Shown here piece by piece: positions 5,560 to 42,325 of a stretch of DNA of 64,000 bases. Location: contig NZ_CAXTHG010000005.1 of assembly GCF_964244005.1 (NCBI RefSeq), forward strand, positions 106,832-170,831, in the 5' to 3' direction. Made by a program: the position numbers and the translations under genes. How positions within the stretch are numbered: position 1 is the stretch's first letter; each line of letters begins with the position of its first letter. Under the pieces are notes generated by a model. That model had not been told where the DNA came from. It was given only the letters and a program-made list of their open reading frames with translations, and ran no database searches. The stretch is from an uncultured Friedmanniella sp. (GTDB lineage Bacteria; Actinomycetota; Actinomycetes; Propionibacteriales; Propionibacteriaceae).

Positions 5560-7238
5560 CCGACGGTGGCCTTCTCGAAGAAGGTGCGGTAGGTGCCGAG
5601 TGCGTCCGGGTTGAGGTTCTGGACGTTGCTCTGCTGGACCGTCGGGAGATAGCGGTAGGCCACCATCGCCGTGGCCAGGATCTCTTCGGTCCAGTAGGTC
5701 TGCAGCTGCACGTAGAGGTCCTTGCGCTTGGCCTGGTCCGGTTCGCCGCGGGCAGCGGTGAGCAGTTGGTCGAACTGCTTCTGCTTCTCGGGCAGCAGGG
5801 ACTCCACGCGCAGCCACTGCTGGTTGTAGCTCGAGTCCCCCGCCAGCAACGGGGTGAGCTTGTTGTCAGGGTCGGCGACGAAGGCCGAACGCTGCTCGAG
5901 GAACACCTCGTGCTGGTTCTTCACCGCGCGATCGCTGAACGTGGCCGAGTCCAGGTACTCAACCTTGGGCTTCAGCCCGATCGCGGTCAGATTGGCCTCG
6001 ATCACCTGACCGAGCGCGGGCCAGAACAAGATGTTGAGGGTGATCAGGCTGATGGACTTGCCGACGGCTCCAGCTTCGGTCAGCAAGGCCTTGGCCTTGT
6101 CCACATCCTGGGTGGACAACGCCTTCAGGCTGTCGTCGTAGCCGAGCTCGGCCGGGGTCACCATCCCGCCGGGAACTGCGGCCGCACCGGCGAAGACCGA
6201 GGAGACCACGGCCTGCCGGTCGATGGCGAGGTTGATCGCCTGCCTGACCTTCTGGTCGGCGAGCGTCGGTTTGCTGAGGTTCATCCCGAGATAGATGTCG
6301 ATGTAGGGCTTCGCCTCCTCGACCACGAGACCTGAGCTCTTCAGTCGCGCGACGTTCGAGACCGGCGCGAAGCAGGTCGCGTTCACTGCGTTGCTGCTGA
6401 GCGCGCTGACCAACGAGGAGGGGTCGGGCAGGATCTGGAACACGACCTTCGACAGGGTGGGTTTGCCCTCCCAGTAGTCATCGAAGCGCTCCAGGACCAC
6501 CGACTGCCCGGCGGTGAAGCTGACGAACTTGTAGGGGCCCGATCCCACCAGGGACTGACCGATCTTGGCACCCTTCGCCTCGATGGCCGCCGAGGACAGG
6601 GCGACGGAGTTGGGGTTCGAGCAGCGGCCGAGGAAGGCGACGTCCGGCGCGGCCAGCTTGACCTCGAAGGTGGCGTCATCGAGAGCCTGGTAGGACTTCA
6701 CGTTGGCTCCGCCGAGCTCGGAGGAGGCATAGGTCGTGGGGTCGCGGGTGGGGTCGCTCTCGTCGAAGAGCCGGCGCCAGGAGCGCTCGAAGTCCTTCGC
6801 GCTGACGGTGTTGCCGTCGTGGAACTTGACTCCCGAGCGGATCTTGAAGGTGTAGACGAGCTGGTCGTCGGAGACCGTCCAGCTCTCGGCCAGCGCCGGC
6901 TTGGGCTCGCTGCTCACGTAGTCGACGTGCGTGAGGCCGCGAGCGATGCAGTCGATCACCATCCAGTTGCCAAAGCTGGCGAAGGAGCCGGGGTCGCTGG
7001 TGCCGGTGAGCTGGTCGACGGCGAAGATCAGCTCGCCGTCGGTGTTCGCCGGACCGGTCGGGGTCTCGGCCGGAGTGTTCGACCCGGAGGTGCCGGGTCG
7101 ACTGCAGGCCGCTAGCAGACCGGGGGTCAGGATCACACCGCCACCGACGAGGGCGGAGCGGAGGAACGTACGGCGGGCCACGGCCACGTCGAGCGCGGCG
7201 GTCGCGGTGGCGGTCAAGTCGGAGGTGCTGCTGCTCAT
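5556..7238 (-). CDS. ABC transporter substrate-binding lipoprotein (family 5), Tat-like signal
   Basis: RRTFLR twin-arginine motif and LAAC lipobox; PALAESW.VSDD, GVKFHDG, GSGPYKF family-5 motifs. Confidence 0.92.
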   Translation of the reverse strand: MSSSTSDLTATATAALDVAVARRTFLRSALVGGGVILTPGLLAACSRPGTSGSNTPAETPTGPANTDGELIFAVDQLTGTSDPGSFASFGNWMVIDCIARGLTHVDYVSSEPKPALAESWTVSDDQLVYTFKIRSGVKFHDGNTVSAKDFERSWRRLFDESDPTRDPTTYASSELGGANVKSYQALDDATFEVKLAAPDVAFLGRCSNPNSVALSSAAIEAKGAKIGQSLVGSGPYKFVSFTAGQSVVLERFDDYWEGKPTLSKVVFQILPDPSSLVSALSSNAVNATCFAPVSNVARLKSSGLVVEEAKPYIDIYLGMNLSKPTLADQKVRQAINLAIDRQAVVSSVFAGAAAVPGGMVTPAELGYDDSLKALSTQDVDKAKALLTEAGAVGKSISLITLNILFWPALGQVIEANLTAIGLKPKVEYLDSATFSDRAVKNQHEVFLEQRSAFVADPDNKLTPLLAGDSSYNQQWLRVESLLPEKQKQFDQLLTAARGEPDQAKRKDLYVQLQTYWTEEILATAMVAYRYLPTVQQSNVQNLNPDALGTYRTFFEKATVG

Positions 7239-7300
7239 GGCGGGTCCTGTCGGATGCAGACGTACGGACAGTGGGACGAGAGAAAGAGCCGAACCGCAAT

Positions 7301-7312
7301 AGTTTATAAAGT
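7301..7312. promoter_or_regulatory. Candidate operator, near-palindrome AGTTTATAAAGT (copy 1)
   Basis: One mismatch to the perfect palindrome ACTTTATAAAGT. AT-rich site in a GC-rich intergenic region upstream of the ABC operon. Confidence 0.5.
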
Positions 7313-7481
7313 ATGGAAACTACAGCAGCGGTACATGTCGAATCCACGCACCTTCTGTTACGGTCAGGTTACGGAATTGATGGCTTGACCGCGGGCTTGA
7401 GTAGTGAGCGCGGTCCGTGGTGTCATAAGGCCGGGGTGGGGGAGGGGCAGCGGCGGAATGGTGAAACCTCGAAACCAGCAA

Positions 7482-7493
7482 ACTTTATAAGGT
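7482..7493. promoter_or_regulatory. Candidate operator, near-palindrome ACTTTATAAGGT (copy 2)
   Basis: One mismatch to ACTTTATAAAGT; followed by AT, like copy 1. Confidence 0.5.
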
Positions 7494-7731
7494 ATATCTC
7501 GTGGCCAGTTTGTCAGAGTCAGGAGCAGTCGGTGTCATCCCTGCCGACGGTAAGCCGTCGGCGCCCTGACCGGTGGGGCTTCGGTGGCATCGCGGCCGCA
7601 GCGAACCTCCGGCGTCGCGGTGTCCAGTATTTCGTGATCTTCGAGCGCGGAGCTGCCCACCGCGGCCCGGGACGACTCGTTCGGCGGTCAGCGAGCCGTG
7701 CTGAGCAGCCATTTCTTCGAGCCGATGCCGC

Positions 7732-8442
7732 TCAGGGGACGGCTGGGGGGAAGAGGAGGTCGCGGACGGCGGCACCGGTGTGCACGATGTGCTCGATCGA
7801 CGTCCGGCTGGCCAGGTCGGGGTTGCCGTCGGAAACGGCTTGGGCGACCGTCTTGTGCACCTGGACCCAGTCGCGGCCGAGCTGGTCCTCCACGGTGGAG
7901 AAATAGAACCGGGCGCGCTTGCGCAGACTCACGGCGGTGCTGCCGAGTACCGAGTTGTGGGCCGCGTCACTGAGAGCCAGGTAGAACGCGTGGTTCGAGG
8001 AGCTGAGAGCATCGTGGTCGACCGCGCGATGTGCGGTCTCGCCGGCCTGCACCGCCTGCTTGAGGGTGGCCAGCTCCGCCGGTGTCCGGCGTTCCGCTGC
8101 CCACCGGGCCACCTGACCTTCGACCAGAGCGCGGAACTCGAACAGCTCGGTCAGCTCCTGCTCGGTCCGCTCCCGCACCCGTACGCCGTAACGGGGCTTG
8201 ATGTCGACCCAGCCAGCCTCGTGCAGCGATCGCAACGCTTCCCGGACCGGGATCCGGCTCACACCGTAGTGGGCGGCGAGGTCGTCGGCGTGGATCCGGG
8301 CGCCCGGCTCGAGTGCACCGGTGATGATTGCTTCCTCGAGGTTGTCGAACAACATCAAGGGCAGCGTGCTGGACCCTGACAGCAGGGGCAGCGAACCAGT
8401 GAAGTCGCTACGGCTAGTGGCGACTGAGCCTTCGGTGGTCAC
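7732..8442 (-). CDS. GntR family transcriptional regulator (FCD domain)
   Basis: LEEAIITGALEPGARI...YGVSRIPVREALRSL HTH followed by an FCD domain (ELFEFRALVEG, NHAFY). The true start may be further downstream. Confidence 0.92.
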   Translation of the reverse strand: MTTEGSVATSRSDFTGSLPLLSGSSTLPLMLFDNLEEAIITGALEPGARIHADDLAAHYGVSRIPVREALRSLHEAGWVDIKPRYGVRVRERTEQELTELFEFRALVEGQVARWAAERRTPAELATLKQAVQAGETAHRAVDHDALSSSNHAFYLALSDAAHNSVLGSTAVSLRKRARFYFSTVEDQLGRDWVQVHKTVAQAVSDGNPDLASRTSIEHIVHTGAAVRDLLFPPAVP

Positions 8443-14138: not shown

Positions 14139-14256
14139 CAGGTCATGAGTATCAGCTTCAAGCCCTGGCTGGCTGATCGGCAACCCTCGCTCGCGGTGGG
14201 GTGCCCCAGGTGAGGACCCGACAGGAGCCGAACCCCGCTCCTGTAAGCGCTGGTCT
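14139..14256 (+). ncRNA. SAM-IV riboswitch
   Basis: GGTCATGAGT..CAGC..CAAGCCC.GGCT.GCTG..CGGCAACCCTC...CGCGGTGGGGTGCCCC.GGTGA.GACC matches the actinobacterial SAM-IV pattern as recalled. It lies upstream of sulfur-acquisition genes. Confidence 0.88.
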
Positions 14257-15429: not shown

Positions 15430-16473
15430 ATGCACCCTCGCCGCCGTTTCCTCCGTGCTCTCGGAGCCGGTCTCGCCGCCACCTCCCTGGTCACGCTCGC
15501 CGCCTGCGGCGGGGGAGGGGGTGCTGCGGCCCCGGAGGACAAGACGATCCGCATCGCCTACCAGAAGTTCCCCAGCGGCGACCTGATCGTCAAGAACCAG
15601 GGCCTGCTGGAGAAGGCGCTGCCCGACTACAAGATCGAGTGGAAGGTCTTCGACTCCGGCGCCAGCATCAACACCGCGTACGTGGCGAAGGCCGTCGACG
15701 TCGCCGCCATCGGGTCGAGTCCGGTCGCCCGCGGTCTGTCGGGGCCGCTGAACCTGCCCTACAAGGTCGCGTTCATCCTCGACGTGGCCGGCGACAACGA
15801 GGCGCTGGTCGCCTCCAACGCCTCCGGGGTGACCAAGGTCGCCGACCTGCGCGGCAAGAAGATCGCCACCTCGTTCAGCTCGACCGCGCACTACAGCCTG
15901 CTCGTCGCCCTGAAGCAGGCCGGGCTGACTGAGCAGGACGTGACGCTGGTCGACCTCGAGCCGCAGGACATCCTCGCGGCCTGGAAGCGCGGGGACATCG
16001 ACGCCGCGTACACCTGGCTGCCCAACCTGGACGAGCTGCGCAAGACCGGCAAGACGCTGGTGGCCAGCAAGGACCTCGCCACCGCCGGCAAGCCGACGCT
16101 GGACCTGGGCGTGGTGTCGGACGCCTTCATCAGCGCGCACCCTGAGGCCGTCGACGCCTGGCGCAAGGCCGAGGCGCAGGCCCTGACCACGATCAAGGAC
16201 CAGCCCGACCAGGCCAACCAGGCTGTGGCCGCCGAGCTCGGCATCACCCCCGAGGAGGCCGCCGGGCAGCTGAAGCAGGGCGTGTACCTGACGTCGGCGG
16301 AGCTGACCAGTCCCACCTGGCTGGGCACGGAGCAGTCGGTCGGCAAAGCCTCGACCTACCTGCACGACGCCGCGGTCTTCCTGGCTGAGCAGAAGCAGAT
16401 CCCGGCCGCGCCCGACCAGAAGGTCTTCGACGACGCCATCTACCGGAAGGGTCTGTCCAGTGACCTCAACTAG
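15430..16473 (+). CDS. tauA: Taurine/sulfonate ABC substrate-binding lipoprotein
   Basis: RRRFLR with LAAC lipobox; KVFDSGASIN, IGSSP, STAHYSLL, DAAYTW. Confidence 0.85.
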   Translation: MHPRRRFLRALGAGLAATSLVTLAACGGGGGAAAPEDKTIRIAYQKFPSGDLIVKNQGLLEKALPDYKIEWKVFDSGASINTAYVAKAVDVAAIGSSPVARGLSGPLNLPYKVAFILDVAGDNEALVASNASGVTKVADLRGKKIATSFSSTAHYSLLVALKQAGLTEQDVTLVDLEPQDILAAWKRGDIDAAYTWLPNLDELRKTGKTLVASKDLATAGKPTLDLGVVSDAFISAHPEAVDAWRKAEAQALTTIKDQPDQANQAVAAELGITPEEAAGQLKQGVYLTSAELTSPTWLGTEQSVGKASTYLHDAAVFLAEQKQIPAAPDQKVFDDAIYRKGLSSDLN

Positions 16474-17269
16474 CACCTCGGGGACCGCCCCGACGACGGG
16501 GACCGCTGCAGCCGTCGAGGTCGAGCAGGTGACGCGCCGGTACGGCCGCGGCGACCAGGCCGTGACCGCCCTCGGTCCCGTCGACCTGCGGATCGACACG
16601 GGAGAGTTCCTCGTGCTGGTGGGGGCGTCCGGCTGCGGCAAGTCCACCCTGCTGCGACTGATCGCCGGCTTCGAGGAGCCGTCGACCGGACGGGTCACCG
16701 TCGCCGGCGCCGCGCCGGAGCCAGGACGGGGAGCCGGGCTGGTCTTCCAACAGCCCCGGCTGCTGCCCTGGCGCACCGTCGGCAGCAACGTCGACCTGGC
16801 CCTGCGCTACGCCGGGTTGGCGGCGTCCGAGCGCGTCGCGCGGCGGGACGCCCTGCTGCACCGGGTCGGTCTCGACGGGATAGCCCACCGGCGGATCTGG
16901 GAGATCTCCGGTGGTCAGCAGCAGCGGGTCGCGATCGCCCGCGCCCTGGCGGTGGATTCTCAGCTGCTGCTGCTGGACGAGCCGTTCGCCGCCCTCGACG
17001 CCCTCACCCGCGAGCGTCTCCAGGAGGACCTGCGCCAGGTCAGTGCCGAGACTCACCGGACGTCGGTCTTCGTGACCCACAGCGTCGACGAGGCGGTGTT
17101 CCTCGGCAGCCGCGTCATCGTGCTGAGCAAGCGGCCGGGCCAGATCGCCCTCGACCTGCCGGTCGACCTGCCCCGGACGGGGGCGACTCCGGACGAGATC
17201 CGGGCCCTGCCCGCCTACGCCACCGCGCGCAGCACCGTCGCTCACGCCGTCCGTGCCGCGGCGGCCTGA
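16460..17269 (+). CDS. tauB: Taurine/sulfonate ABC ATP-binding protein
   Basis: GASGCGKST, FQQPRLLPWRTV, ISGGQQQR, DEPFAALD, FVTHSVDEAVFL. Confidence 0.88.
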   Translation: MTSTSTSGTAPTTGTAAAVEVEQVTRRYGRGDQAVTALGPVDLRIDTGEFLVLVGASGCGKSTLLRLIAGFEEPSTGRVTVAGAAPEPGRGAGLVFQQPRLLPWRTVGSNVDLALRYAGLAASERVARRDALLHRVGLDGIAHRRIWEISGGQQQRVAIARALAVDSQLLLLDEPFAALDALTRERLQEDLRQVSAETHRTSVFVTHSVDEAVFLGSRVIVLSKRPGQIALDLPVDLPRTGATPDEIRALPAYATARSTVAHAVRAAAA

Positions 17270-17287
17270 CCACCGGAAGGACTCAGC

Positions 17288-18154
17288 ATGACTCTCACCG
17301 CTCCCGCTGCCTCGACCCTCGAGCCGCTCGGCCCGTCCTTCGGCGCCGAGGTCCACGGCCTCGACCTTGCCGCGATCGACGACGGCCAGGTCGCCGCTCT
17401 CCGGCAAGCGCTCGTCGCCCACAAGGTCTTGTTCTTCCCGGGACAGGACCTGACCGACGACGAACAGGTCGAGTTCGGTCGCCGGCTCGGCCAGCTGACC
17501 GCCGCCCATCCGGTGGCGGCCCCGCTGGACGCGGCCCATCCGGAGGTCTACTCCATCGACAGCGCCGACCCGGACTTCTCGTTCTCCGACGTCTGGCACA
17601 CGGACGTGACGTTCATGGAGCACCCGCCGCTCGCCTCGATCCTGCGGGCGGTGGAGCTGCCGCCCACCGGGGGCGACACGAGCTGGGCCGACAGCCAGTT
17701 GGCGTACGAGTCGCTGTCGGCCCCGGTCCAGCGGCTCGTCGACTCCCTCGACGCCGTGCACGACGGGAACCGGGAGTGGGGCCACCACCTCAAGCACGGC
17801 CGCCGTGGCCAGGGCAACGAGTGGGACGGCAAGACGGTCACCGAGCTGACGCCGGTCGTGCACCCGGTGGTCCGCGTGCACCCCGAGTCCGGACGCAAGG
17901 GGCTGTTCGTCAACCCGGGATTCACCTCCCACATCGTGGGAGTCTCCGAGGCCGAGAGCCGAGGCATCCTCGACCTGCTCTACGCCCACCTCACCAAGCC
18001 CGAAAACACGGTCCGGCACCGCTGGCACGTCGGCGACCTCGGGGTGTGGGACAACCGGAGCACCCTGCACTACGCCAACCGGGACTACACCGCCCAGCGG
18101 GTGATGCGGCGCATCACCCTGGCCGGCGACCGGCCCTGGGGGCCGGCCCGCTGA
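17288..18154 (+). CDS. tauD: TauD/TfdA family 2-oxoglutarate-dependent dioxygenase
   Basis: WHTDVTF (HxD), GGDTSWA, HPVVRVHPESGRK, WDNRSTLHYA..DY..RVMRR. Confidence 0.92.
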   Translation: MTLTAPAASTLEPLGPSFGAEVHGLDLAAIDDGQVAALRQALVAHKVLFFPGQDLTDDEQVEFGRRLGQLTAAHPVAAPLDAAHPEVYSIDSADPDFSFSDVWHTDVTFMEHPPLASILRAVELPPTGGDTSWADSQLAYESLSAPVQRLVDSLDAVHDGNREWGHHLKHGRRGQGNEWDGKTVTELTPVVHPVVRVHPESGRKGLFVNPGFTSHIVGVSEAESRGILDLLYAHLTKPENTVRHRWHVGDLGVWDNRSTLHYANRDYTAQRVMRRITLAGDRPWGPAR

Positions 18155-29608: not shown

Positions 29609-30400
29609 TCAGGCGTGGCTGTGGACCAGCAGCCGGTAGGGCGGCTGCGAGAACAGCAGGTTGGCCTGCTGGGGTCCGACCGAGGAGGCGTGCTCGTCGT
29701 CGACGGGATCGTGGACGCTCGCCTGCCAGGAGCGGACCGCCGCGTCGGTGAGCTCGAGGTAGTTGCCCGTGGTGGGCAGTGCCGTGGCCCCGTCGCGCTG
29801 GTTGAGGACGTGCTGCAGCCGCCGTACCGAGTCTGACGCCATGGTCCCGAAGCAGAGCTTGGCCACGTAGACGTCACCGCGGCTCCAGTCCTCAGTCACG
29901 CTGTGCTGGACGTCGTCGGTGCCCACCCGCTGCTTCCAGGTCTTGGCCCGCTCGACCGCGTCCTGGGCGTAGGCGTCACCGCCGTTGTAGGCCTTGGCGC
30001 TCTGGTAGAAGCTTCCGGTCGAGCTTCAGGTGCGGTGCAGGACGGAAATGCCGAACCGGATGTTGTCGGCGGGCACCCAGGGCTGCAGACCCTGCTGCTC
30101 CATCTGGTCAAAGAATCCCCGGAACGTGATCTGCATCGGACCGACGCCGTTGCTCGACTGGTGCCGGATCAGCTCGCGGAACTTCTGGTACCGCTCCTTG
30201 GTCACCTCGATGTCGTGACCAGACTCGGAAAAGGCGCCACCCCGGTCGTGGCCGAAGATGTTCGCGCCGCCCGTCTCCTTCTGCAGGATGGTGCAGCCGA
30301 GGTAGAAGGGAAATCCTGTCTGGTCACAGGCGGCGGCCAGCGCCTCGACGTTGGTCAGCCACTGTCCGGCTGCGGCGATCTGTTCTTCGGTGACGCTCAT
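29609..30400 (-). pseudogene. Lysozyme/lytic-transglycosylase-like peptidoglycan hydrolase with C-terminal PG-binding-like domain; one in-frame TGA at 30026-30028
   Basis: GGAGGT RBS and ATG at 30400. LQKETGG (catalytic Glu), NGVGPMQIT, PADNIRFG; past the TGA the same frame reads AKAYNGG..YA, then KLCFG..SDSVRRLQHVLN...TGNY...TDAAVRSWQ. Confidence 0.7.
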
Positions 30401-30588
30401 TCCGACCTCCACGAGAAACGTTCCCTGACCCGTACGTGAGAGGTCACGGCGACGTCGGAAATACCGTTCAGGACGACCTTTTCCACCCGCTGGTCGACGG
30501 CTTGGTGACCGGTATCACGCCACCGTGGAGGCGCTCTGTCTGGGCACCGAGCGCCACGACGGCGCTCACCTTTCGGATGGAGCGCACC

Positions 30589-32430
30589 ATGCCAGAAACA
30601 CCGCAGGAACAGCTCGAGCAGGCGGGCGGGATCACCAAAGCGCTGCTCGACACCCTCGACCAGCTGGTTGACCGCATCCTCGGTCAGCAGACGGTGGACA
30701 AGAGCGGCAAGCCGCTCCGTCAGGTCGCGTACATGCACATGCCGAACGGCCTGCCCGTCGACCCGCGTCAGTACGCCAACCCCTGGACCCCGGCCGGTGG
30801 AGCCACCCTGGCGAAGCTGAACAACGACGGCACCCTGCCGAAGGTCGACCCGGTGCCGCCGCCCGTGCCGCAGCCGGCCGCCCCTGCCGGCACGCCGCCG
30901 GTCACCCCGGTGCCGGTCAAGCCCACCCAGGACCAGGCCCTGATGGCGTCGATGCAGGCCGCCCTGAACACGGCCTGGCTCTTCGACGAGATGCCCATGG
31001 TGACCGGGGACGGGACCTACCGGCCCTACCCGAGCACCCGCAAGCTCAGCTCGGCGTACGAGGGTCTCGTGCACTCAGTCCAGGCCGTCCCCCCGCCGCC
31101 GCAGCCGGCCGACGTCGCGCAGGCCCTGGCGGATGCCGAGAAGGTCCTCTACAACCACGACGCCGACGGCAACATCACCGGTCCCTCGATCAAGTTCCAG
31201 AACTGGATCAAGTTCTCGCAGAGCTACGCCGACGCCAAGGCCACCTTCGCCACCCAGCAGGCCCAGGCCATGGCCGACCCGATCCTCGGTTCGGTGTGGC
31301 CCGCGACCGGCGCCTCGCTGCAGCAGAAGGTGGACACTGCCTACCAGATCTGGCGCAGCTCGGGCGCCGACGACGTCGAGAAGGCCCTCGACCTGATGAA
31401 CTCCGAGGGCGGCTCGGCGGCCGCGCACTTCGTCTCCCAGGCCCGCGAGCTGCTCGACAAGTGGGACCTCTCGCTGGCCGGCGCCGTCGCGGTCCGCACC
31501 CCGTACACCCAGGTCACCCCGGCCAGCTGGTACGACCACACCAACAATGACATCGGTTTCGCCGGGATCTCGGCCTCGTCGGACCGCTACCACAGCAGCG
31601 GCGGCGCGCAGAGCAGCAGCTTTGCCAACAGCTGGTACAAGGGGACGAGCTCCTCGACCCAGGCCAGTGCGGGTGCGAGCTTCTTCGGTATCAGCATCGG
31701 CGGTTCGGGGGGCGGCTCGTCCTCGGAGAGTGACAGCGCCGGTCACCAGGGCGGTCAGTCCTCCAGCCAGCACGCCGACTCCTCCACCACGGCGTCGATC
31801 TCGTGCGAGTTCGGCGTGATCAAGATCGAGCGGCCCTGGTTGTTGACCGAGCTGTTCCACATCGGTGGCTGGTACGTACCCGGTGAGAAGGCCGGCTGCG
31901 TGAGCGACGGCACGATCGCCGGCCAGGACGGCGACGACAAGAAGCTGCTGCCGATGATCACCACCCAGGCGCTGGTCATCCGCAACGTGACGATCACCGC
32001 CACCGGCTGGGGCGCGGCGGGCCAGGCCCTGTCGGAGTACCAGGCCAACCAGGCGGCGCACTCCGACAGCAGCTCCTGGAACGCGGGCGGCAGCGTCGGC
32101 TTCATGGGCTTCGGCGGCTCCGTCAGCCACACCGAGAGCGACTGGGCCGGCAGCCAGTCCTCCGACGCCTCGTCGAGCTGGGGCTTCTCCTACGACTCGT
32201 TCACCGACACGGGCACGCTGACCATCAACGGCTCGCAGATCGCCGGCTACATCGGCGAGATCGTCGGCTCGAACCCGCGGCTCGACGACCCGAACGTCGA
32301 CAAGCCGGCGGACACGACGACGGACCCCGCGCCCGCCGACAGCACGCCGACGACTGACGGCACCCCGACGTCCGACGGCAGCGGCACCCCCGTTGCCCCG
32401 ATCCTGACGCCCGCCGGCGCCAACGTCTGA
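30589..32430 (+). CDS. Uncharacterised 613-aa protein A with two Ser/Gly-rich hairpin-like segments (candidate pore-forming subunit)
   Basis: Strong coding bias, GGAG RBS before MPETPQ, no signal peptide, Pro/Thr/Asp-rich tail; paralogous to the next gene. Confidence 0.85.
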   Translation: MPETPQEQLEQAGGITKALLDTLDQLVDRILGQQTVDKSGKPLRQVAYMHMPNGLPVDPRQYANPWTPAGGATLAKLNNDGTLPKVDPVPPPVPQPAAPAGTPPVTPVPVKPTQDQALMASMQAALNTAWLFDEMPMVTGDGTYRPYPSTRKLSSAYEGLVHSVQAVPPPPQPADVAQALADAEKVLYNHDADGNITGPSIKFQNWIKFSQSYADAKATFATQQAQAMADPILGSVWPATGASLQQKVDTAYQIWRSSGADDVEKALDLMNSEGGSAAAHFVSQARELLDKWDLSLAGAVAVRTPYTQVTPASWYDHTNNDIGFAGISASSDRYHSSGGAQSSSFANSWYKGTSSSTQASAGASFFGISIGGSGGGSSSESDSAGHQGGQSSSQHADSSTTASISCEFGVIKIERPWLLTELFHIGGWYVPGEKAGCVSDGTIAGQDGDDKKLLPMITTQALVIRNVTITATGWGAAGQALSEYQANQAAHSDSSSWNAGGSVGFMGFGGSVSHTESDWAGSQSSDASSSWGFSYDSFTDTGTLTINGSQIAGYIGEIVGSNPRLDDPNVDKPADTTTDPAPADSTPTTDGTPTSDGSGTPVAPILTPAGANV

Positions 32431-32442
32431 ACGGAGCTGCAG

Positions 32443-33951
32443 ATGTCTGACGCCACTGGGCTCCTGGCTCTCGGCCAAGCACTCGATGACTACCTGAGCA
32501 GTGAGTACGCGCCGCCGCCAGGAACCCAGACGGCGTTGGGCTTCGTCCCCGGGGTCGCCGTCAACCCGTCCTCCTTCTCTCCGACCGGCGTCGTCAACCC
32601 GATGGCGGTCCAGACCTTCCTGAACGTCGTGACCAACCTGATGGGACCCGTCGTCGACGGCCGTTTCTCCGGCTTCCTCTCGGCCGCGACAATGTACGGG
32701 GCGTTGATCAACATGGCGACACCTCTCGACCCGCTCGGGACCCCCGCGGCCGACGCCTTCCTCCGGGTGGTCAACACCGCGCGGTCGGCCTTCGGCGGCA
32801 ACGGGCCGAAGGAGCTGGTGGCCGTGCCGCTGAACTGGTACGACGCCACCAGCACCGGCGGCTGGTCGACCTACACCACCACCTCGAGCGAGCAGTCGGG
32901 CGAGGGCCAGAGCAGCACGAGCGGCACGGGCGAGCCGCCTACCGACACCTTGCCCGACCCCCACCAGTCGCCGCCGATCATCGACCAGACCCGGTTCGAG
33001 AAGATGTGGCGCTTTCGCACTCTCGACGAGACCGCGATCGCCGAGGTGGTCGTGCCGACCGTCGACCCGCCCGTGGCGGTCGAGGTGACCCAGCCTCCGG
33101 TGGTCGTCGCGGAGCAGCTGGTGAAGAGCCACCAGCCGGTCGTCCGTGACCACGTCGGGGTGGACCTGTCGGAGACCTCCGTCCGGACCAAGGGCCGGGT
33201 GTTCCAGACCAGGCTTTCGGCTTCGTCGGCGGACCTCCTGGTGCCCTCGACCGGCCGGCTCCAGCTGCGGGCGCCCACGCTCGCCGCCGGGTTCGTCGCC
33301 ACGCCCCTGGCGCGGACCGTCGACGATGACGCAGCGGTACGCGTCCTCGCCGCCGGCTCTCGGCGCCAGCTGGTCGCCGCGCTCGCCCAGGACAACTCGG
33401 TCATCGCCGGGGACGGCGACCTCGCGGTCTCCCAGGCGCTGGCGCACCTGATCCGGGCCCAGTCGCCGGCCGTGGTGGCCGAGATCGACGACGACCGCGA
33501 GACCACCTCGACCCAGTCGATGGAGACCAACGAGCTCACCCTCTCCCTCGAGTACTGCTTCGTGCAGATCTCCCGCGACGGGTGGTGGAACGACGCGGTG
33601 CTCCGGATGCCGCGCTGGTACGCCCCCGGTCAGAAGGCGGGCGAGTTCAGCTCAGGGACCGCCGTCGGCGGGCTGCCCCTCGGCGTCCCGATCGCCATGG
33701 TGCTGACCCGCAACGTCTCGGTGAGCGGTCGCTGGACCGAGTCCGACCGGACGGCCGCCGAGAGCCACACCAGTCTCGGCCCCTGGTCGATGCAGGACTC
33801 GCAGATGGCCTACGACGCCTCCTCGGAGACGGCCACGCTGACCATGCCCAGCATGCAGGTGGTGGCGGTCGTCTGTGCCGTCCTGCCCGCCCTGCCGCCG
33901 TCGGACGACCCGAGCCTCCCGGCCGCCGCGCCGGACCCGGCCACCCACTAA
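32443..33951 (+). CDS. Uncharacterised 502-aa protein B, paralog of protein A
   Basis: GGAG RBS, starts 12 bp after A. Shares P..WYD, W(Y).PG.KAG..S.G, RNV....W and T.TLT....Q....DDP motifs with A. Confidence 0.85.
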   Translation: MSDATGLLALGQALDDYLSSEYAPPPGTQTALGFVPGVAVNPSSFSPTGVVNPMAVQTFLNVVTNLMGPVVDGRFSGFLSAATMYGALINMATPLDPLGTPAADAFLRVVNTARSAFGGNGPKELVAVPLNWYDATSTGGWSTYTTTSSEQSGEGQSSTSGTGEPPTDTLPDPHQSPPIIDQTRFEKMWRFRTLDETAIAEVVVPTVDPPVAVEVTQPPVVVAEQLVKSHQPVVRDHVGVDLSETSVRTKGRVFQTRLSASSADLLVPSTGRLQLRAPTLAAGFVATPLARTVDDDAAVRVLAAGSRRQLVAALAQDNSVIAGDGDLAVSQALAHLIRAQSPAVVAEIDDDRETTSTQSMETNELTLSLEYCFVQISRDGWWNDAVLRMPRWYAPGQKAGEFSSGTAVGGLPLGVPIAMVLTRNVSVSGRWTESDRTAAESHTSLGPWSMQDSQMAYDASSETATLTMPSMQVVAVVCAVLPALPPSDDPSLPAAAPDPATH

Positions 33952-33994: not shown

Positions 33995-35110
33995 ATGGCC
34001 ACCTACCCCAACGCCGAGTGGCGGCCGCTCGCCGCCGGCAGCCCCGGTGCCCCGATGGACGCGCACGACATCGTCTGCGTCCACACGATGGTCGGCTTCC
34101 TCGCCGGCACCGAGTCGATGTTCCGCGAGAACGGCTGGGCTGGCACCGAGTCGCACCTCGGGGTCGGCGGCCCCGCCGACGGCGCCCTGGACGGCACGGT
34201 CTACCAGTGGGTCGACACCGACGACCAGGCCGACGCCAACCTGCAGGGCAACCACCGTCTGATCAGCATCGAGACCAGCGACGGGGGCGACGAGAAGAAC
34301 CCGTGGTCGGACGCACAGCTCGACGCGATCACCGGCATCATCGTCTGGGCGTGCCAGACCTACGACATCCCGGCGGAGCTGATCGCCGACAGCACGGCCG
34401 GGCAGCGCGGCATCGGCTATCACCGCCAGGGCATCGACCCGTGGCGGGTGGCGGCCGGTGAGAAGTGGTCGAACAGCAACGGCAAGGTCTGCCCGGGCGA
34501 CGTCCGGATCGCCCAGCTGGTCGACACGATCATCCCGCGCGTCCAGGCGCAGGTGTCGGGCTCCGGGTCCGGGACGGTGTCCACGGCCCTCATCCTCGAC
34601 GCGATCAGTCCGGACGCCGGTGTCGCCGGTGACCAGGTCGTGCTCACCGGCTCCGGGTTCGCGCCGGCGGACGGGGTGTCGTTCGGCGGCGTCTGGGTCG
34701 AGACGTGGACCATCGACAGCGACAGCCAGATCACCGCGACCGTGCCCGAGCCGAACGCCAGCGGCTCGGTCTCGGTGGCGGTCAGCACCCCCGACGCGAC
34801 GAGCGACGGGGTCTGGTTTAGCTACGCCGACAGCTCTACGCCGCCCTCGCCGCCGACGTCATCACTGACCCTGTCCTTCATCGGTCCCGACACCAGCACC
34901 GCCGGCAGCCAGGTGGTGCTCACCGGGTCCGGGTTCCTGGCGGCGAACGGGGTGTCGTTCGGTGACGTATGGGTCGACACCTGGACCATCGACGACGACA
35001 GCCAGATCACCGCCACCGTGCCCGAGCCGGTCACCAGCGGCTCGGTCTGGGTCTCGGTGAGCTCGCCGGACGCGACGAGCGACTCGATCTCTTTCGCCTA
35101 CGAGGAGTGA
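33995..35110 (+). CDS. N-acetylmuramoyl-L-alanine amidase (Amidase_2, Zn) with two C-terminal IPT/TIG domains
   Basis: GAGG RBS; VCVHTMVG, SHLGVG, ISIETSD, IGYHRQG, GKVCPG (H/H/C Zn ligands); two ISPD.G..G.QVVLTGSGF...VSFG repeats. Confidence 0.88.
   Translation: MATYPNAEWRPLAAGSPGAPMDAHDIVCVHTMVGFLAGTESMFRENGWAGTESHLGVGGPADGALDGTVYQWVDTDDQADANLQGNHRLISIETSDGGDEKNPWSDAQLDAITGIIVWACQTYDIPAELIADSTAGQRGIGYHRQGIDPWRVAAGEKWSNSNGKVCPGDVRIAQLVDTIIPRVQAQVSGSGSGTVSTALILDAISPDAGVAGDQVVLTGSGFAPADGVSFGGVWVETWTIDSDSQITATVPEPNASGSVSVAVSTPDATSDGVWFSYADSSTPPSPPTSSLTLSFIGPDTSTAGSQVVLTGSGFLAANGVSFGDVWVDTWTIDDDSQITATVPEPVTSGSVWVSVSSPDATSDSISFAYEE
34634..35083 (+). repeat. Tandem intragenic duplication of a 174-bp IPT/TIG coding unit (34634-34807 and 34910-35083)
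   Basis: Both copies run CAGGT.GTGCTCACCGG.TCCGGGTTC ... GACAGCCAGATCACCGC.ACCGTGCCCGAGCCG ... GACGCGACGAGCGAC, with the same length and no gaps. Confidence 0.9.
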
Positions 35111-35145: not shown

Positions 35146-35240
35146 CCCGGATCATGCATGAGGTGGCGGTTCTGTCCGCGAGTTGATCAAGCGAAGAGTG
35201 CTCCTGACCAGGGAGAATTCTTCTTGCGACGGACATATTT

Positions 35241-39181: not shown

Positions 39182-42100
39182 CTAAGGCGAGATCCCCGCC
39201 CCGACGACGCCGATCAGGGAGGTGGCCAGCGCGCGGAGCCGTGGGCCGAGGAAGTATTCGCCGGTCTCGGCGGCGACCTCCGCCGACTGGCGGGCCCGCT
39301 CCCGGGCCGTCGCCAGGTCACCGTGCCGCGCGTACGCCTCGGCGGCGAGCATCCGGTAGGTCGGCGCGAAGATCTTGATGCCGCTGTTCCGGTAGGCCGC
39401 GGCTGCGGCGTCAGCCCGCTCCGGCCCGGTCGGGTCGCCCTTCATCGCGTCGGCCCACGCCTGCACCTGGTCGGCGTGCAGCTCGAAGATGCCGAACCCC
39501 AGCCGGTCGGAGAGCCGGCGGCACTGCTCGCCACGGCGGCGGGCCTGGTCGGCGTCGCCGCGCATGGTGGCCAGCAGGGCGAGGTAGAAGTCGCACTTCA
39601 CCTGAACGTCCTCAGCCGTCGTCGAGGAACGCAGCAGCCCAGCCACCTCCTCGTCGGCCGCGGCTTCGTTCCCGACCGCGTGCTCGAGCATCGCGCGGTA
39701 GGCGTAGACGTCCTCGACCATGTGGAACAGCCGACCGGGCAGCTGGATGTCGACGCCGTCGGCCAGCAGCTGGCGGAGGACGTCCAGCTCGCGCCGGGCG
39801 GTCCTCAGGTCGCCGGACAGCAGCGCCAAGTGTCCGAGCACGAAGCGGGCTGTGCTGGCGGCGATCGGGGCCGGTCGGTCGGCCAGCACCTCCGCCGCGG
39901 CGGCCATCGACCCCGCGTAGCGGCCACGGACGGCGGTGGCGACGACGGTGCCGAGCCAGGCGGCCGCCGACGCGGCGTCGGTCGGCGCGGCCGGGGCCGG
40001 CGTCGGCAGTCGTTCCTCGGCGCTGCTCGCGGCCCACATCCAGAGGGCGTCGAGATGGCCTTGCACCAGGGCGTGCAGGGACTGGCGGACGACGGGGTCG
40101 GGGACCGCCGCCGCGAGCCGGAGGGCCTGGACGAGCGTGTCGTGGGCCGCTTCGGTGGCGGAGCGGCGTAACGCGTCCTCGGCCGCCGACACGAGATAGG
40201 GGACAGCTGCGGCCGGTCCGACCGCCGGCGCCGCGAGCACCAGCTGACGGGCGACCTCGAGCACCTCGTCGGTCTGCTGGGGGTTGCGCTGCTGCAGGGC
40301 GGCCGCGATCTTGGCGTGCAGGTGGACGCGGCGGGCCACCGAGAGGCGGGCGACCAGCGTCTCGCGGACGAGCGCGTGGCTGAGCGCGAACCGGCCCGTC
40401 CCGTCGCCGGTCTCGACCAGCAGCCCGGCCAGCAGCGCGGCCTCGCAGGAGTCGAGGACCTGTTCCTCGTCCAGGCCCGTCGTCCGGGCCAGCAGGTCGG
40501 GGGTGACAGGCCCGGACCCCAGCAGGGCCGCCACCCCGAGCAGCGAGACCGTGGCTGCCGGCAGCCGGTCGAGCCGGCGTCCCAGGACGTCCAGCACCTC
40601 GGCGGGCAGAGCCTGCTGGGCCGCGCTGGTGGTGAGTCCTCGCTCGGCGCTCAGCAGCTTGACCAGCTCGGTCACGAAGAGCGCGTTCCCACCCGTGCGT
40701 TCGGTGACGGCCGCGACGACCCCCGGCTCGGGCTCGCGGCCGTCGATGGTGCGGATCAACGCCGAGACGTCCTCGGCCGCCAGCGGCGCCAGCTCGACCC
40801 GGGTGACCAGGTCGCGGGGCAGCGAGCCGAGGGCCCGGTCGAGCTCGGCGGTGGGCTCGTCCGAGCGCACCGCGACCGCCACGAGGAGGCCGTCGGGGGC
40901 GAGCTCCTCGACCGCCAACCGGAGCAGGGTCAGCGTGTCGCGGTCGACCCAATGGGCGTCGTCGACCAGCACCGCCACGGGTCCCGACCGCTGAGCCCGC
41001 TCGAGCAGGTCGAGCACCCCGCGGAACAGCAGCGACCGGCTGAGCGGCGGCCGCGTCTCGGACGGGTCCTCCGGTGGAACGGGCTGCAGCGCGGCGAGAG
41101 CCGCCGCCGACGGGTCGTCGTCGCCGCGGGTTCCCTCGGCCAGGCCGGGGGTGGCGGCGGTGAGCTCGCGCAGCACGGTGACCCAGGGCCAGAGCGCCGG
41201 GGCCGCCCCGTCAGGCAGCCCGTGCCCGTGCACGACCCGGCCGCCGGACCGCCGCACGACCTCCTCGAGCGCGTCGAACACGGTGGTCTTGCCGGCGCCC
41301 ATCGGGCCGCGGACGACCACCAGCCCTCCTGACCCGGAGGACGCGGCGCGCACCACGCTCGCCAGGGCGGCCAGCGCCGGTCGGCGCCCGACCAACGGCC
41401 ATCCTGCGGTGGTCCGGGCCGGGTCGGGCCGGTCTGGATCGGCAGCGGGCAGCGACGGCTCCACCTGGACCAGGCTGCGGTCGGCGCTCGGTCGCGGGGC
41501 CCGCAGGACCGGGTCGTGCTGCAGCAGCTGGCGTTCGAGGTCGCGCAGGGCGGGCGACGGGTCGAGGCCGAGCTCGTCGGCGAGCGTCCGGCGCAGCTGC
41601 CCGTACGTGTCCAGCGCCTCGGCCTGCCGACCCGTGCGGTAGAGCGCGATCATCAACGCGCGCCAGCCGCGCTCCCGGAACGGTCGGGCTGCGACCACGC
41701 GACGTGCCTGGTCGACGACGACCTCGGGCTCACCGACCGCGAGCCTGGCCTCCAGCAGCGTCTCGACGGCCGCGTCACGCAGGTCACTGAGCCGGGTCGC
41801 CTCCGTCCGGGCGAACGGCACGTCGGCCAGGTCGCCCAACGCCTCGCCCGACCACAGGCCGAGCGCCTGGTCGAGGTCGGCGACGGCTGACCGCAGCGCG
41901 GTCGGCTCCCCGGACTGGGCGGCCGCGCGGCCCCGGTCCAGCAGCGCGCTGAACCGGGATAGGTCCGTCGCCTCCGCCGGCAGGCTCAGCACCCACCCGG
42001 GTGGCTGAGTGGTGATCTGGGCAGGCGTCGGTTCCAGCACCCGCCGCAGCCGGGACACGTACGCCCGCAGCGTGAGGACGGCCTGCGCCGGTGGGCCGTC

Positions 42101-42253
42101 GGGCCAGAGCTCGTCGATCAGCCGGTCCGTGCTGACGACCCGGCCGGCTTCCAGCGCGAGCAGGGCGAAGACGGCCCGCTGCTTGACGCCGCCGAGCGGC
42201 AGGGATCGCCCCTCGTGCCGGCACGTCACCGGGCCCAGTAGCCTCACCTGCAT
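39182..42253 (-). CDS. AfsR/SARP family regulator (OmpR-type HTH, BTAD, AAA ATPase)
   Basis: VRLLGP...KQRAVFALLAL, LIDELWPD, BTAD (PFRERGW..LM.ALYR.GRQAEAL), GPMGAGKTT, VDDAHWVD, RTGGNALFV. Confidence 0.92.
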   Translation of the reverse strand: MQVRLLGPVTCRHEGRSLPLGGVKQRAVFALLALEAGRVVSTDRLIDELWPDGPPAQAVLTLRAYVSRLRRVLEPTPAQITTQPPGWVLSLPAEATDLSRFSALLDRGRAAAQSGEPTALRSAVADLDQALGLWSGEALGDLADVPFARTEATRLSDLRDAAVETLLEARLAVGEPEVVVDQARRVVAARPFRERGWRALMIALYRTGRQAEALDTYGQLRRTLADELGLDPSPALRDLERQLLQHDPVLRAPRPSADRSLVQVEPSLPAADPDRPDPARTTAGWPLVGRRPALAALASVVRAASSGSGGLVVVRGPMGAGKTTVFDALEEVVRRSGGRVVHGHGLPDGAAPALWPWVTVLRELTAATPGLAEGTRGDDDPSAAALAALQPVPPEDPSETRPPLSRSLLFRGVLDLLERAQRSGPVAVLVDDAHWVDRDTLTLLRLAVEELAPDGLLVAVAVRSDEPTAELDRALGSLPRDLVTRVELAPLAAEDVSALIRTIDGREPEPGVVAAVTERTGGNALFVTELVKLLSAERGLTTSAAQQALPAEVLDVLGRRLDRLPAATVSLLGVAALLGSGPVTPDLLARTTGLDEEQVLDSCEAALLAGLLVETGDGTGRFALSHALVRETLVARLSVARRVHLHAKIAAALQQRNPQQTDEVLEVARQLVLAAPAVGPAAAVPYLVSAAEDALRRSATEAAHDTLVQALRLAAAVPDPVVRQSLHALVQGHLDALWMWAASSAEERLPTPAPAAPTDAASAAAWLGTVVATAVRGRYAGSMAAAAEVLADRPAPIAASTARFVLGHLALLSGDLRTARRELDVLRQLLADGVDIQLPGRLFHMVEDVYAYRAMLEHAVGNEAAADEEVAGLLRSSTTAEDVQVKCDFYLALLATMRGDADQARRRGEQCRRLSDRLGFGIFELHADQVQAWADAMKGDPTGPERADAAAAAYRNSGIKIFAPTYRMLAAEAYARHGDLATARERARQSAEVAAETGEYFLGPRLRALATSLIGVVGAGISP

Positions 42254-42325
42254 AGCGAGCAGTGTGGCACCACGCCGCGGGGGCCGACCAGGTCTGGCGA
42301 GCACCGAGGGACGTGTCGGCAGGGC

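Follow-up and report, generated by a model that had tools for sequence, protein, structure and literature searches.

In the complement membrane attack complex (MAC), a target-bound initiator (C5b-8) shows reduced or partial insertion into the membrane, and the fully inserting C9 then polymerises. The CDCL toxins of Bacteroidota (CDCL-L and CDCL-S), which have an antibacterial role (PMC11169675, PMC11952106), have been compared with this complex: one paralog, which has a variable binding region, serves as a platform on the membrane, where about 30 copies of the other are brought together into a giant beta-barrel (PMC11169675). Here we describe two adjacent genes, A and B, in a 64,000 nt stretch of DNA (the window) from an uncultured Friedmanniella sp. 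(contig NZ_CAXTHG010000005.1, positions 106,832 to 170,831 of the forward strand), an arrangement that most resembles the CDCL toxins and the complement MAC, with the bacterial gasdermins as a possible fold. Protein A carries two long Ser/Gly-rich segments, and B is its paralog and has lost both. The pair forms an undescribed protein family, likened here to binary pore-formers, and the reading we favour, at a probability of roughly 0.45, is that A and B are subunits of a two-component beta-barrel pore-forming system in which B would be the non-inserting, target-binding or nucleating partner.

The likeness to the CDCL toxins is one of organisation only and not of membership: both have adjacent paralogous genes in two clades, but CDCL proteins match PF01289, carry SpII signal peptides and keep the hairpins in both subunits, whereas A and B have neither Pfam match nor signal peptide and B has lost both hairpins. 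CDCL toxins are moreover activated by proteolysis and come with a lipoprotein immunity factor; A and B show neither feature. With the MAC, the favoured reading of A and B has in common paralogous subunits with divided labour; MAC components, however, are secreted eukaryotic MACPF-domain proteins, to which A and B show no sequence match or significant fold match. The bacterial gasdermins (bGSDM; 7n50, 7n51 and 7n52) are, like A and B, cytoplasmic and leaderless, and their two insertion hairpins on a twisted sheet have a possible counterpart in the two segments of A, but they are single-gene effectors of ~250–300 aa with an activating protease and a cleavable C-terminal inhibitory peptide, whereas A has 613 aa, a large helical N-terminal half and a hairpin-less paralog as its partner. 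By sequence, A and B match none of the CDCL, MAC and gasdermin families.

In Pleurotolysin (PlyA and PlyB) and in YaxAB/XaxAB, binding or anchoring falls to one component and the crossing of the membrane to the other; the partners YaxA and YaxB are related in structure, but their membrane segments are asymmetric (PMC4318580, PMC5935710). PlyA (an aegerolysin) is unrelated to PlyB (MACPF), whereas A and B are paralogous; YaxAB pores are alpha-helical, and neither system is similar to A and B in sequence. Holin-endolysin cassettes, and streptolysin O with its co-encoded NADase (cytolysin-mediated translocation), share with the present proposal a permeabilising protein beside a leaderless enzyme that needs the lesion. 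Holins, though, are small proteins with transmembrane (TM) helices, whereas A and B are large, A has no TM helix and the A-B loci are not in prophages; streptolysin O differs in being a secreted CDC.

Homology and pairing of A and B

The two genes and their parts are listed below. Numbering of A follows the 613 aa form, which is the version in databases and has 78 homologues; the BLASTP comparison used a 664 aa numbering (+51) and the broad profile comparison a 617 aa numbering.

30589..32430 (+): gene A, 613 aa, putative pore-forming subunit; database start MPETPQ, the mechanical open reading frame (ORF) starting at 30436
31537..31788 (+): A hairpin-1 segment (aa 317-400), from composition, cross-phylum pattern and low predicted local distance difference test score (pLDDT)
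32005..32208 (+): A hairpin-2 segment (aa 473-540), from composition, low pLDDT and absence from B
32433..32436 (+): GGAG Shine-Dalgarno-like motif, 7 nt 5' of the B ATG
32443..33951 (+): gene B, hairpin-less paralog of A, an exact ATG-to-TAA ORF of 502 aa
32443..32844 (+): B N-terminal conserved domain (aa 1-134), last motif PLNWYD
32845..33534 (+): B insert (aa 135-364) at the site of A hairpin 1, of variable length and predicted to be disordered
33535..33918 (+): B C-terminal domain (aa 365-492), homologous to A 394-578 and ending in PPSDDP

The A stop and the B start are separated by 12 nt, and G+C is ~70% throughout the A-B region, as it is elsewhere in the window. A BLASTP comparison of the window A with the window B returned one high-scoring segment pair (HSP; E=3e-9, 23% identity over 188 columns), spanning A 441-621 (664 aa numbering) and B 353-492, with a 55-column gap that falls exactly at A hairpin 2. 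When profiles of the A family (64 sequences) and of the B family (17) were compared, the probability was 98.1% (E=1e-13); alignments from 45-51 loci of many phyla gave 99.1% (E=7.5e-19; A 402-585 against B 361-502, 617 aa numbering), and the global A-B profile alignment 99.7%. The original prediction had called B a paralog of A from an alignment by eye and proposed a comparison of hidden Markov models (HMMs) as a check; both the pairwise and the profile results bear it out, and by these comparisons B is a true paralog of A. Chance similarity is ruled out by BLASTP, by both profile comparisons and by the tree described below.

Four of the five motif pairs that had been aligned by eye lie inside the significant HSP (ISCEF.../LSLEY..., GWYVPGEKAG/RWYAPGQKAG, VIRNVTIT/VLTRNVSV and TLTINGSQI...DDP/TLTMPSMQV...DDP). 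The fifth, PASWYD/PLNWYD, is not significant alone (BLASTP E=1.6; hhalign suboptimal E=0.029), though the P, W and D of this PxxWYD motif are invariant in both families (P129, W132 and D134 in B) and A-type proteins match the B HMM across the stretch inside significant multi-segment hits (A of L054, E=4.7e-13; A of L057, E=9e-10). Three weak suboptimal hhalign matches (E 0.01-0.07) are colinear, pairing A 25-66 with B 5-45, A 133-191 with B 61-117, and A 283-344 with B 107-157, and the B proteins of L037, L042 and L046 match the A HMM at 34-569, 122-567 and 279-562 (E=8e-12, 1e-14 and 1e-19, respectively). The colinear N-terminal matches and the PxxWYD evidence suggest that homology probably extends over the whole length, with A bearing extra N-terminal helical material. 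Motifs common to the two families are PxxW(Y/W)D, (E/Q)(Y/F)xxxxIxR..W, GWYxPG, RNVxI and a C-terminal PxxDDP; A-type proteins are ~560-640 aa long with the two Ser/Gly-rich segments, and B-type proteins ~420-520 aa without them.

The folded part of both proteins closes with a Pro-rich stretch and a DDP motif (PRLDDP in A, 32263-32280; PPSDDP in B, 33898-33912), which hardly varies within either family and beyond which the tails are variable and of low complexity. The motif may mark a site of processing or recognition.

Guided by a profile, a scan of a single genome from each species yielded 46 A-type loci, which with four earlier ones made 50 A-anchored loci, and the six-frame ORFs of these were searched with HMMs of the A and B families. 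The A-type loci come from Actinomycetota, Alpha- and Betaproteobacteria, Acidobacteriota, Cyanobacteria, Chloroflexia, Eremiobacterota/Vulcanimicrobiota and Armatimonadota. A B-type ORF directly adjoins the A-type ORF in 48/50, across seven phyla; in the other two (L006 and L045) the contig ends right after A, and the co-occurrence anticipated for the two gene types is thus found in every testable locus. Gene order is A then B in all but L044 and L049. Pairing was also found in three further A-anchored loci (L051-L053, 3/3), and an A-type partner in all four B-anchored ones (L054 and L056-L058). The hosts are mostly soil bacteria, and a B-family profile search of 1.84 billion representative clusters (50% identity) gave 715 at E<=1e-3 and 428 at E<=1e-10.

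Two irregular loci were seen. The A-type gene at L058:3264-4990 is split into two ORFs (397 and 178 aa), with the break inside the hairpin-1 segment and A-HMM 378-419 missing, which might reflect a frameshift or an assembly error, or be a true division of the gene. On an Oscillatoriales contig (L036:2945-3319), a 124 aa fragment matching A-HMM 166-269 lies downstream of B, besides a partial A upstream, and may be a rearrangement or a duplicated remnant.

A neighbour-joining tree was built on the C-terminal domain common to both proteins (131 columns; 45 sequences each of A and B). In it the sequences group strictly by type, giving the two co-occurring clades that had been expected. The A-B distance within the same locus (0.828) equals the overall A-B mean (0.826), and with the clean clades this indicates a duplication that, by these distances, is single and ancient and predates the spread of A-B. 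On the same comparison we reject gene conversion and any recent or repeated duplication. Pairwise identity averages 43.5% among A proteins and 29.1% among B proteins, and in 99.8% of 990 genome pairs the A value is the higher; B is the faster-evolving of the two.

Segments of A, and what stands in their place in B

The hairpin-1 segment of A is 84 residues long, 79% of them S/T/G/A/N/Q/H, with two Lys/Arg and a central hydrophobic tip (FFGISIG), and sits between PxxWYD and the strand ...SISCEFGVIKIERPW. The hairpin-2 segment has 68 residues, of which 69% are small or polar and none is Lys or Arg, with the tip SVGFMGFGG, and lies between RNVTITATGW and GTLTINGSQI. Length and pattern of both are conserved from Actinomycetota to Proteobacteria. 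In the AlphaFold (AF2) model of A (pLDDT 70.9, predicted template modelling score 0.65), the N-terminal half is helical, and long strands run at 46-57, 325-330, 401-414, 456-472 and 541-558. Hairpin 1 (low pLDDT at 336-391, with a helix at 345-356) is flanked by strands 325-330 and 401-414, and hairpin 2 (helix 475-491, then low pLDDT at 494-527) by strands 456-472 and 541-558. Two Ser/Gly-rich segments between sheet strands would correspond to the TMH1/TMH2 arrangement of the two-hairpin pore-formers of the MACPF, CDC and gasdermin type; in MACPF/CDC proteins, TMH1 and TMH2 are helical bundles on a bent, four-stranded central sheet and refold into hairpins. No TM helix was found in A (maximum 19-residue hydropathy 1.21), and neither A (N-terminus MPETPQEQLEQ...) nor B (MSDATGLLALGQ...) shows by eye a hydrophobic leader or a lipobox of a signal peptide; an N-terminal Cys, as in bGSDM, is not present.

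Both Ser/Gly-rich segments are absent from B, as the original prediction had said. At the site of hairpin 2 only ~28 residues remain, opposite the gap in the BLASTP alignment. The site of hairpin 1 is occupied by an insert, which had been described as roughly 200 aa long and rich in Pro, Val and Ala; it is indeed there but has 230 residues (135-364), and the compositional label is rejected, Pro, Val and Ala making up 30% of it against 31.6% in the remainder of B. AlphaFold leaves the insert unstructured (pLDDT 22-33) and its length varies among relatives. Several positions within it are conserved (P177, P178, F185, W189, R192, D195, R307 and Q309), which suggests that it is not pure filler. 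F185, W189, R192 and D195 are invariant and belong to a Trp/Arg motif, RFEKMWRFRTLD (aa 184-195, window 32992-33027), which could be an interfacial membrane-binding or protein-binding element; the insert also holds an APRRQL motif. Distant B proteins have W-containing basic counterparts of RFEKMWRFRTLD.

The last core strand of B, LTMPSMQVVAVVCAVLPAL (aa 466-484, window 33838-33894), has a 19-residue hydropathy of 1.89, well above the homologous A strand, a difference that is not uniform among distant B proteins. This only hydrophobic stretch of B is a predicted beta-strand.

Some B-type proteins carry recognisable binding modules. P0147 (798 aa), with an A-type gene upstream, has a seven-bladed PLL/PHL-type lectin propeller (PDB 6rfz, E=1.1e-32; PF26607) that sits at the hairpin-1 site, flanked by the N-terminal and the C-terminal B domain. 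P0152, the B of a Caulobacteraceae locus with the order B, A, then a Tle1-like phospholipase, has four N-terminal LGFP repeats (E=4.6e-46). Three Cys-rich WRWCxKCQGLFF repeats lie in the insert of P0191, and P0179 has a C-terminal extension. The repeated gain of binding-type domains, along with its fast evolution, points to B as the modular member of the pair. We know of no described pore-former in which both hairpins are lost in an obligate paralog and a binding domain occupies the former hairpin site.

Neighbouring genes and regulators

The third gene of the apparent operon in the window encodes a hydrolase, and a terminator-like element follows it:

33995..35110 (+): N-acetylmuramoyl-L-alanine amidase (Amidase_2) followed by two TIG domains (Pfam), leaderless, third gene of the apparent operon
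35201..35215 (+): terminator-like stem-loop, ~90 nt past the amidase stop, a consensus match only, possibly the operon end

The amidase starts 43 nt past the B stop, with GAGG 8 nt upstream of its start, and it resembles phage endolysins (PHROG 1493, E=2.5e-15). The A-B-amidase order is kept in the closest relative (L005), where the amidase is 66% identical. Clustering of neighbours found no universal third gene beside A-B: there are several unrelated families, many loci are without any, and a single conserved third gene was rejected as a candidate. An envelope-attacking enzyme is nevertheless found within one or two genes of A-B in about one third of loci, distributed as follows:

Amidase_2 with or without TIG: the window, L005, L026, L032 and L033
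Glucosaminidase, alone or with hemopexin repeats: L003, L023, L025 and L050
Muramidase with PG_binding_1: L029
CHAP (weak match): L004
PG_binding_1 and M23 (weak matches): L052
Cysteine-peptidase family (Peptidase_C70-like), with relatives fused to Amidase_3: L009, L015, L031 and L039; PF12385 in L057
Tle1-like lipase: L044/L056
GH75 chitosanase: L058

Since five or more unrelated catalytic classes stand beside A-B, a functional link is indicated, not inherited synteny. None of the adjacent enzymes inspected as examples has a signal peptide. L058 also carries ricin-B lectin and patatin genes nearby.

Divergent from the window pair are two small ORFs, one (30026-30412, minus strand) with a lytic-transglycosylase-like motif by eye (QKETGG...GPMQI) and no Pfam match, the other (29609-29926, minus strand) with a weak PG_binding_1 match below cutoff (E=0.002). 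The PG_binding_1 and M23 genes of S. adustus (L052) are likewise divergent from its A-B pair, and a BLASTP comparison of the 128 aa ORF upstream in the window with the upstream PG_binding protein of S. adustus gave no significant similarity.

In the Chloroflexia locus L037, the gene directly upstream of A (6962-7900) encodes a caspase-family peptidase (Peptidase_C14); no other locus had one among the 41 co-directional neighbour proteins adjoining A-B that were scanned against Pfam, and there is none in the window. In S. adustus (L052), a C14 and EACC1 pair (16232-17791) is found 6 kb from A-B, among transposases. In Rhizobium and Mesorhizobium the gene directly upstream of A-B encodes a MalT-like STAND protein with a DNA-binding domain; upstream in L014 and L044 is a gene whose match to the LuxR family (GerE) is weak and does not reach the Pfam cut-off. 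In the window, a large AfsR/SARP-type regulator (39182-42304, minus strand; Trans_reg_C, BTAD and an AAA_16 STAND NTPase) lies 5 kb from A-B. A regulatory link of this gene and of the STAND neighbours to A-B is possible. Elsewhere in the window, a full-length SAM-IV riboswitch is found at 14141-14255 (+; 106.7 bits, E=1.1e-18), and no tRNA genes were found anywhere in its 64 kb. Prophage or defence-island context was not found at the loci inspected.

Function of the pair

Searches of Pfam, NCBIfam, PADLOC and PHROGs with A and B matched zero families even at E<=1 (MACPF, PF01823, and CDC, PF01289, included in hmmscan), nor did the gasdermin domain PF04598 and related Pfam entries match either protein; PADLOC likewise had no match at E<=1 to the amidase. 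All A and B relatives are named 'hypothetical protein' in the databases, and literature searches by accession and by concept found no description of the family. In Foldseek searches, the full-length A model had no match at E<=0.001 among PDB or viral structures, and the low-confidence B model none at that threshold. The top PDB match for A, not significant, is the Runella bacterial gasdermin 7n52 (E=0.1, probability 0.18), and no MACPF/CDC chain is among its top 50 matches. For the poor B model, which was predicted independently, the best-ranked matches, also not significant, are again bacterial gasdermins, from Bradyrhizobium (7n50, E=0.098, probability 0.60, root-mean-square deviation 5.3 Å over 125 columns) and Vitiosangium (7n51, E=0.22). 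The likeness of the two predicted models to bacterial gasdermins is to be taken as a lead only.

In the reading of A and B as a two-component pore-former, A would supply two membrane hairpins per protomer, and B, which appears to retain the scaffold and the presumed subunit-contact motifs, could not insert. B would bind the target and nucleate or position the polymerisation of A within a hetero-oligomer, in the manner of CDCL-L with CDCL-S or of complement C5b-8 with C9, and the adjacent leaderless hydrolases would probably act with the pore, either passing through it or clearing the wall. Since the scaffold is kept, the hairpins are lost, evolution is fast and binding modules are present in some members, B is most likely a non-inserting, target-binding or nucleating partner. 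The original prediction had offered a receptor-binding, initiating, chaperone or immunity subunit; the faster evolution of B, the lectin at the hairpin-1 site, the LGFP repeats and the Cys-rich repeats lean towards the first two, by way of suggestion. The main uncertainty is the site of action: leaderless proteins and the gasdermin lead favour the inside of the producer (lysis, suicide or release), and the lectin and LGFP modules with the effector-like neighbours favour an extracellular antibacterial weapon.

A number of observations weigh against this pore-former reading. The absence of any Pfam family is one, and sequence searches of the PDB (phmmer and profile hmmsearch) found nothing relevant, CDC and MACPF proteins included. 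The gasdermin matches have TM-scores of 0.23-0.25 with E ~0.1, and so provide no significant link to a known pore-former. The AF2 model of B is poor overall (pLDDT 41, although ~80 at residues 415-480). The period-2 hydrophobic moment of the hairpin segments is moderate, 0.6-0.8 against 1.1-1.6 for core strands, which means that they could be flexible polar loops. Most B proteins, that of the window included, have no recognisable binding domain in the insert, about two thirds of loci are without a nearby wall or membrane hydrolase, and no immunity gene was identified. Finally, A, B and the adjacent enzymes are all leaderless, which offers no evident route to an external target and fits poorly with the extracellular-type lectin and LGFP modules.

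In another reading, which we consider unlikely, A, nucleated or gated by B, would insert into the cytoplasmic membrane of its own cell from the inside, as gasdermins do, in a cell-autonomous lysis or suicide module. A large pore would pass the leaderless hydrolase to the wall, making the module a holin-independent counterpart of the holin-endolysin cassette with B as sensor or nucleator and not as a surface-binding subunit, and it might serve in abortive infection, in developmental lysis or to release cell contents. Such a module is consistent with the lack of signal peptides and TM helices in A, B and neighbouring enzymes of both monoderm and diderm phyla, with the cytoplasm-acting gasdermins as best, though non-significant, fold matches, and with an endolysin-like third gene coupled to A-B in the window. 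The adjacent caspase-family peptidase of L037, the more distant C14 and EACC1 pair of L052, and the STAND or LuxR-type regulators that adjoin the pair in Rhizobium, Mesorhizobium and possibly L014 and L044, with the AfsR-like gene in the window, fit as well. However, the PLL and LGFP domains of some B proteins, and the TIG, hemopexin and PG_binding_1 domains on the hydrolases, are typical of extracellular proteins; the loci lie outside recognisable defence islands or prophages and have no PADLOC match, and the protease partner is missing from nearly all of them. A more specific form of the idea, that A and B are a deeply diverged gasdermin/MACPF/CDC-like branch making a protein-conducting lysis pore from inside, with B, through a variable insert for sensing or binding, nucleating A and the leaderless wall and membrane hydrolases released, seems rather improbable.

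It is more doubtful still that B is a decoy or inhibitor, similar to an immunity protein or antitoxin, that retains the oligomerisation surfaces of A and so caps or poisons A oligomers, leaving A harmless to the producer until B is removed. Strict 1:1 adjacency and tight coupling are as in toxin-antidote pairs, both insertion segments are wholly lost from B with the core motifs retained, both proteins are cytoplasmic as made, and the long disordered insert could make B labile. Known immunity proteins and antitoxins, though, are usually small and unrelated to their toxin, whereas B is nearly A-sized and conserved over its whole length, and its gain of lectin and LGFP domains would be hard to explain. 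The paralogous pore-former pairs already described (CDCL, leukocidins, YaxAB and MAC) are co-operating subunits (PMC11169675, PMC5935710).

That A and B form no pore, and are instead a soluble or wall-associated heteromeric scaffold (organising or regulating peptidoglycan hydrolases, for example) with the A segments as flexible polar loops, would suit the lack of significant similarity to any pore-former, the modest beta-amphipathicity and the recurrent link with peptidoglycan-acting enzymes and PG-binding domains, but is very unlikely, given that the segments, unlike linkers, keep their length, position, low charge and hydrophobic tips from Actinomycetota to Cyanobacteria, that lying between long sheet strands, and with helices in the soluble model, they mirror TMH1/TMH2 of two-hairpin pore-formers, and that non-wall enzymes (the Tle1-like lipase and the caspase) are also neighbours.

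If A and B are pore-forming, a large bacterial lineage without family annotation or solved structure would join the short list of two-hairpin pore-formers. B would then be a natural subunit that keeps the oligomer scaffold and discards the membrane hairpins, so that nucleation and targeting of a giant pore could be tested in a two-gene system, with the lectin-bearing B variants as handles for target finding. The variable neighbouring enzymes suggest either that leaderless envelope hydrolases have a new way of being delivered or of causing lysis, or that the system is an antibacterial weapon of a new class. Should the pair instead act from inside the producing cell, it would represent a holin-independent 'gasdermin plus endolysin' death or secretion module across seven phyla.

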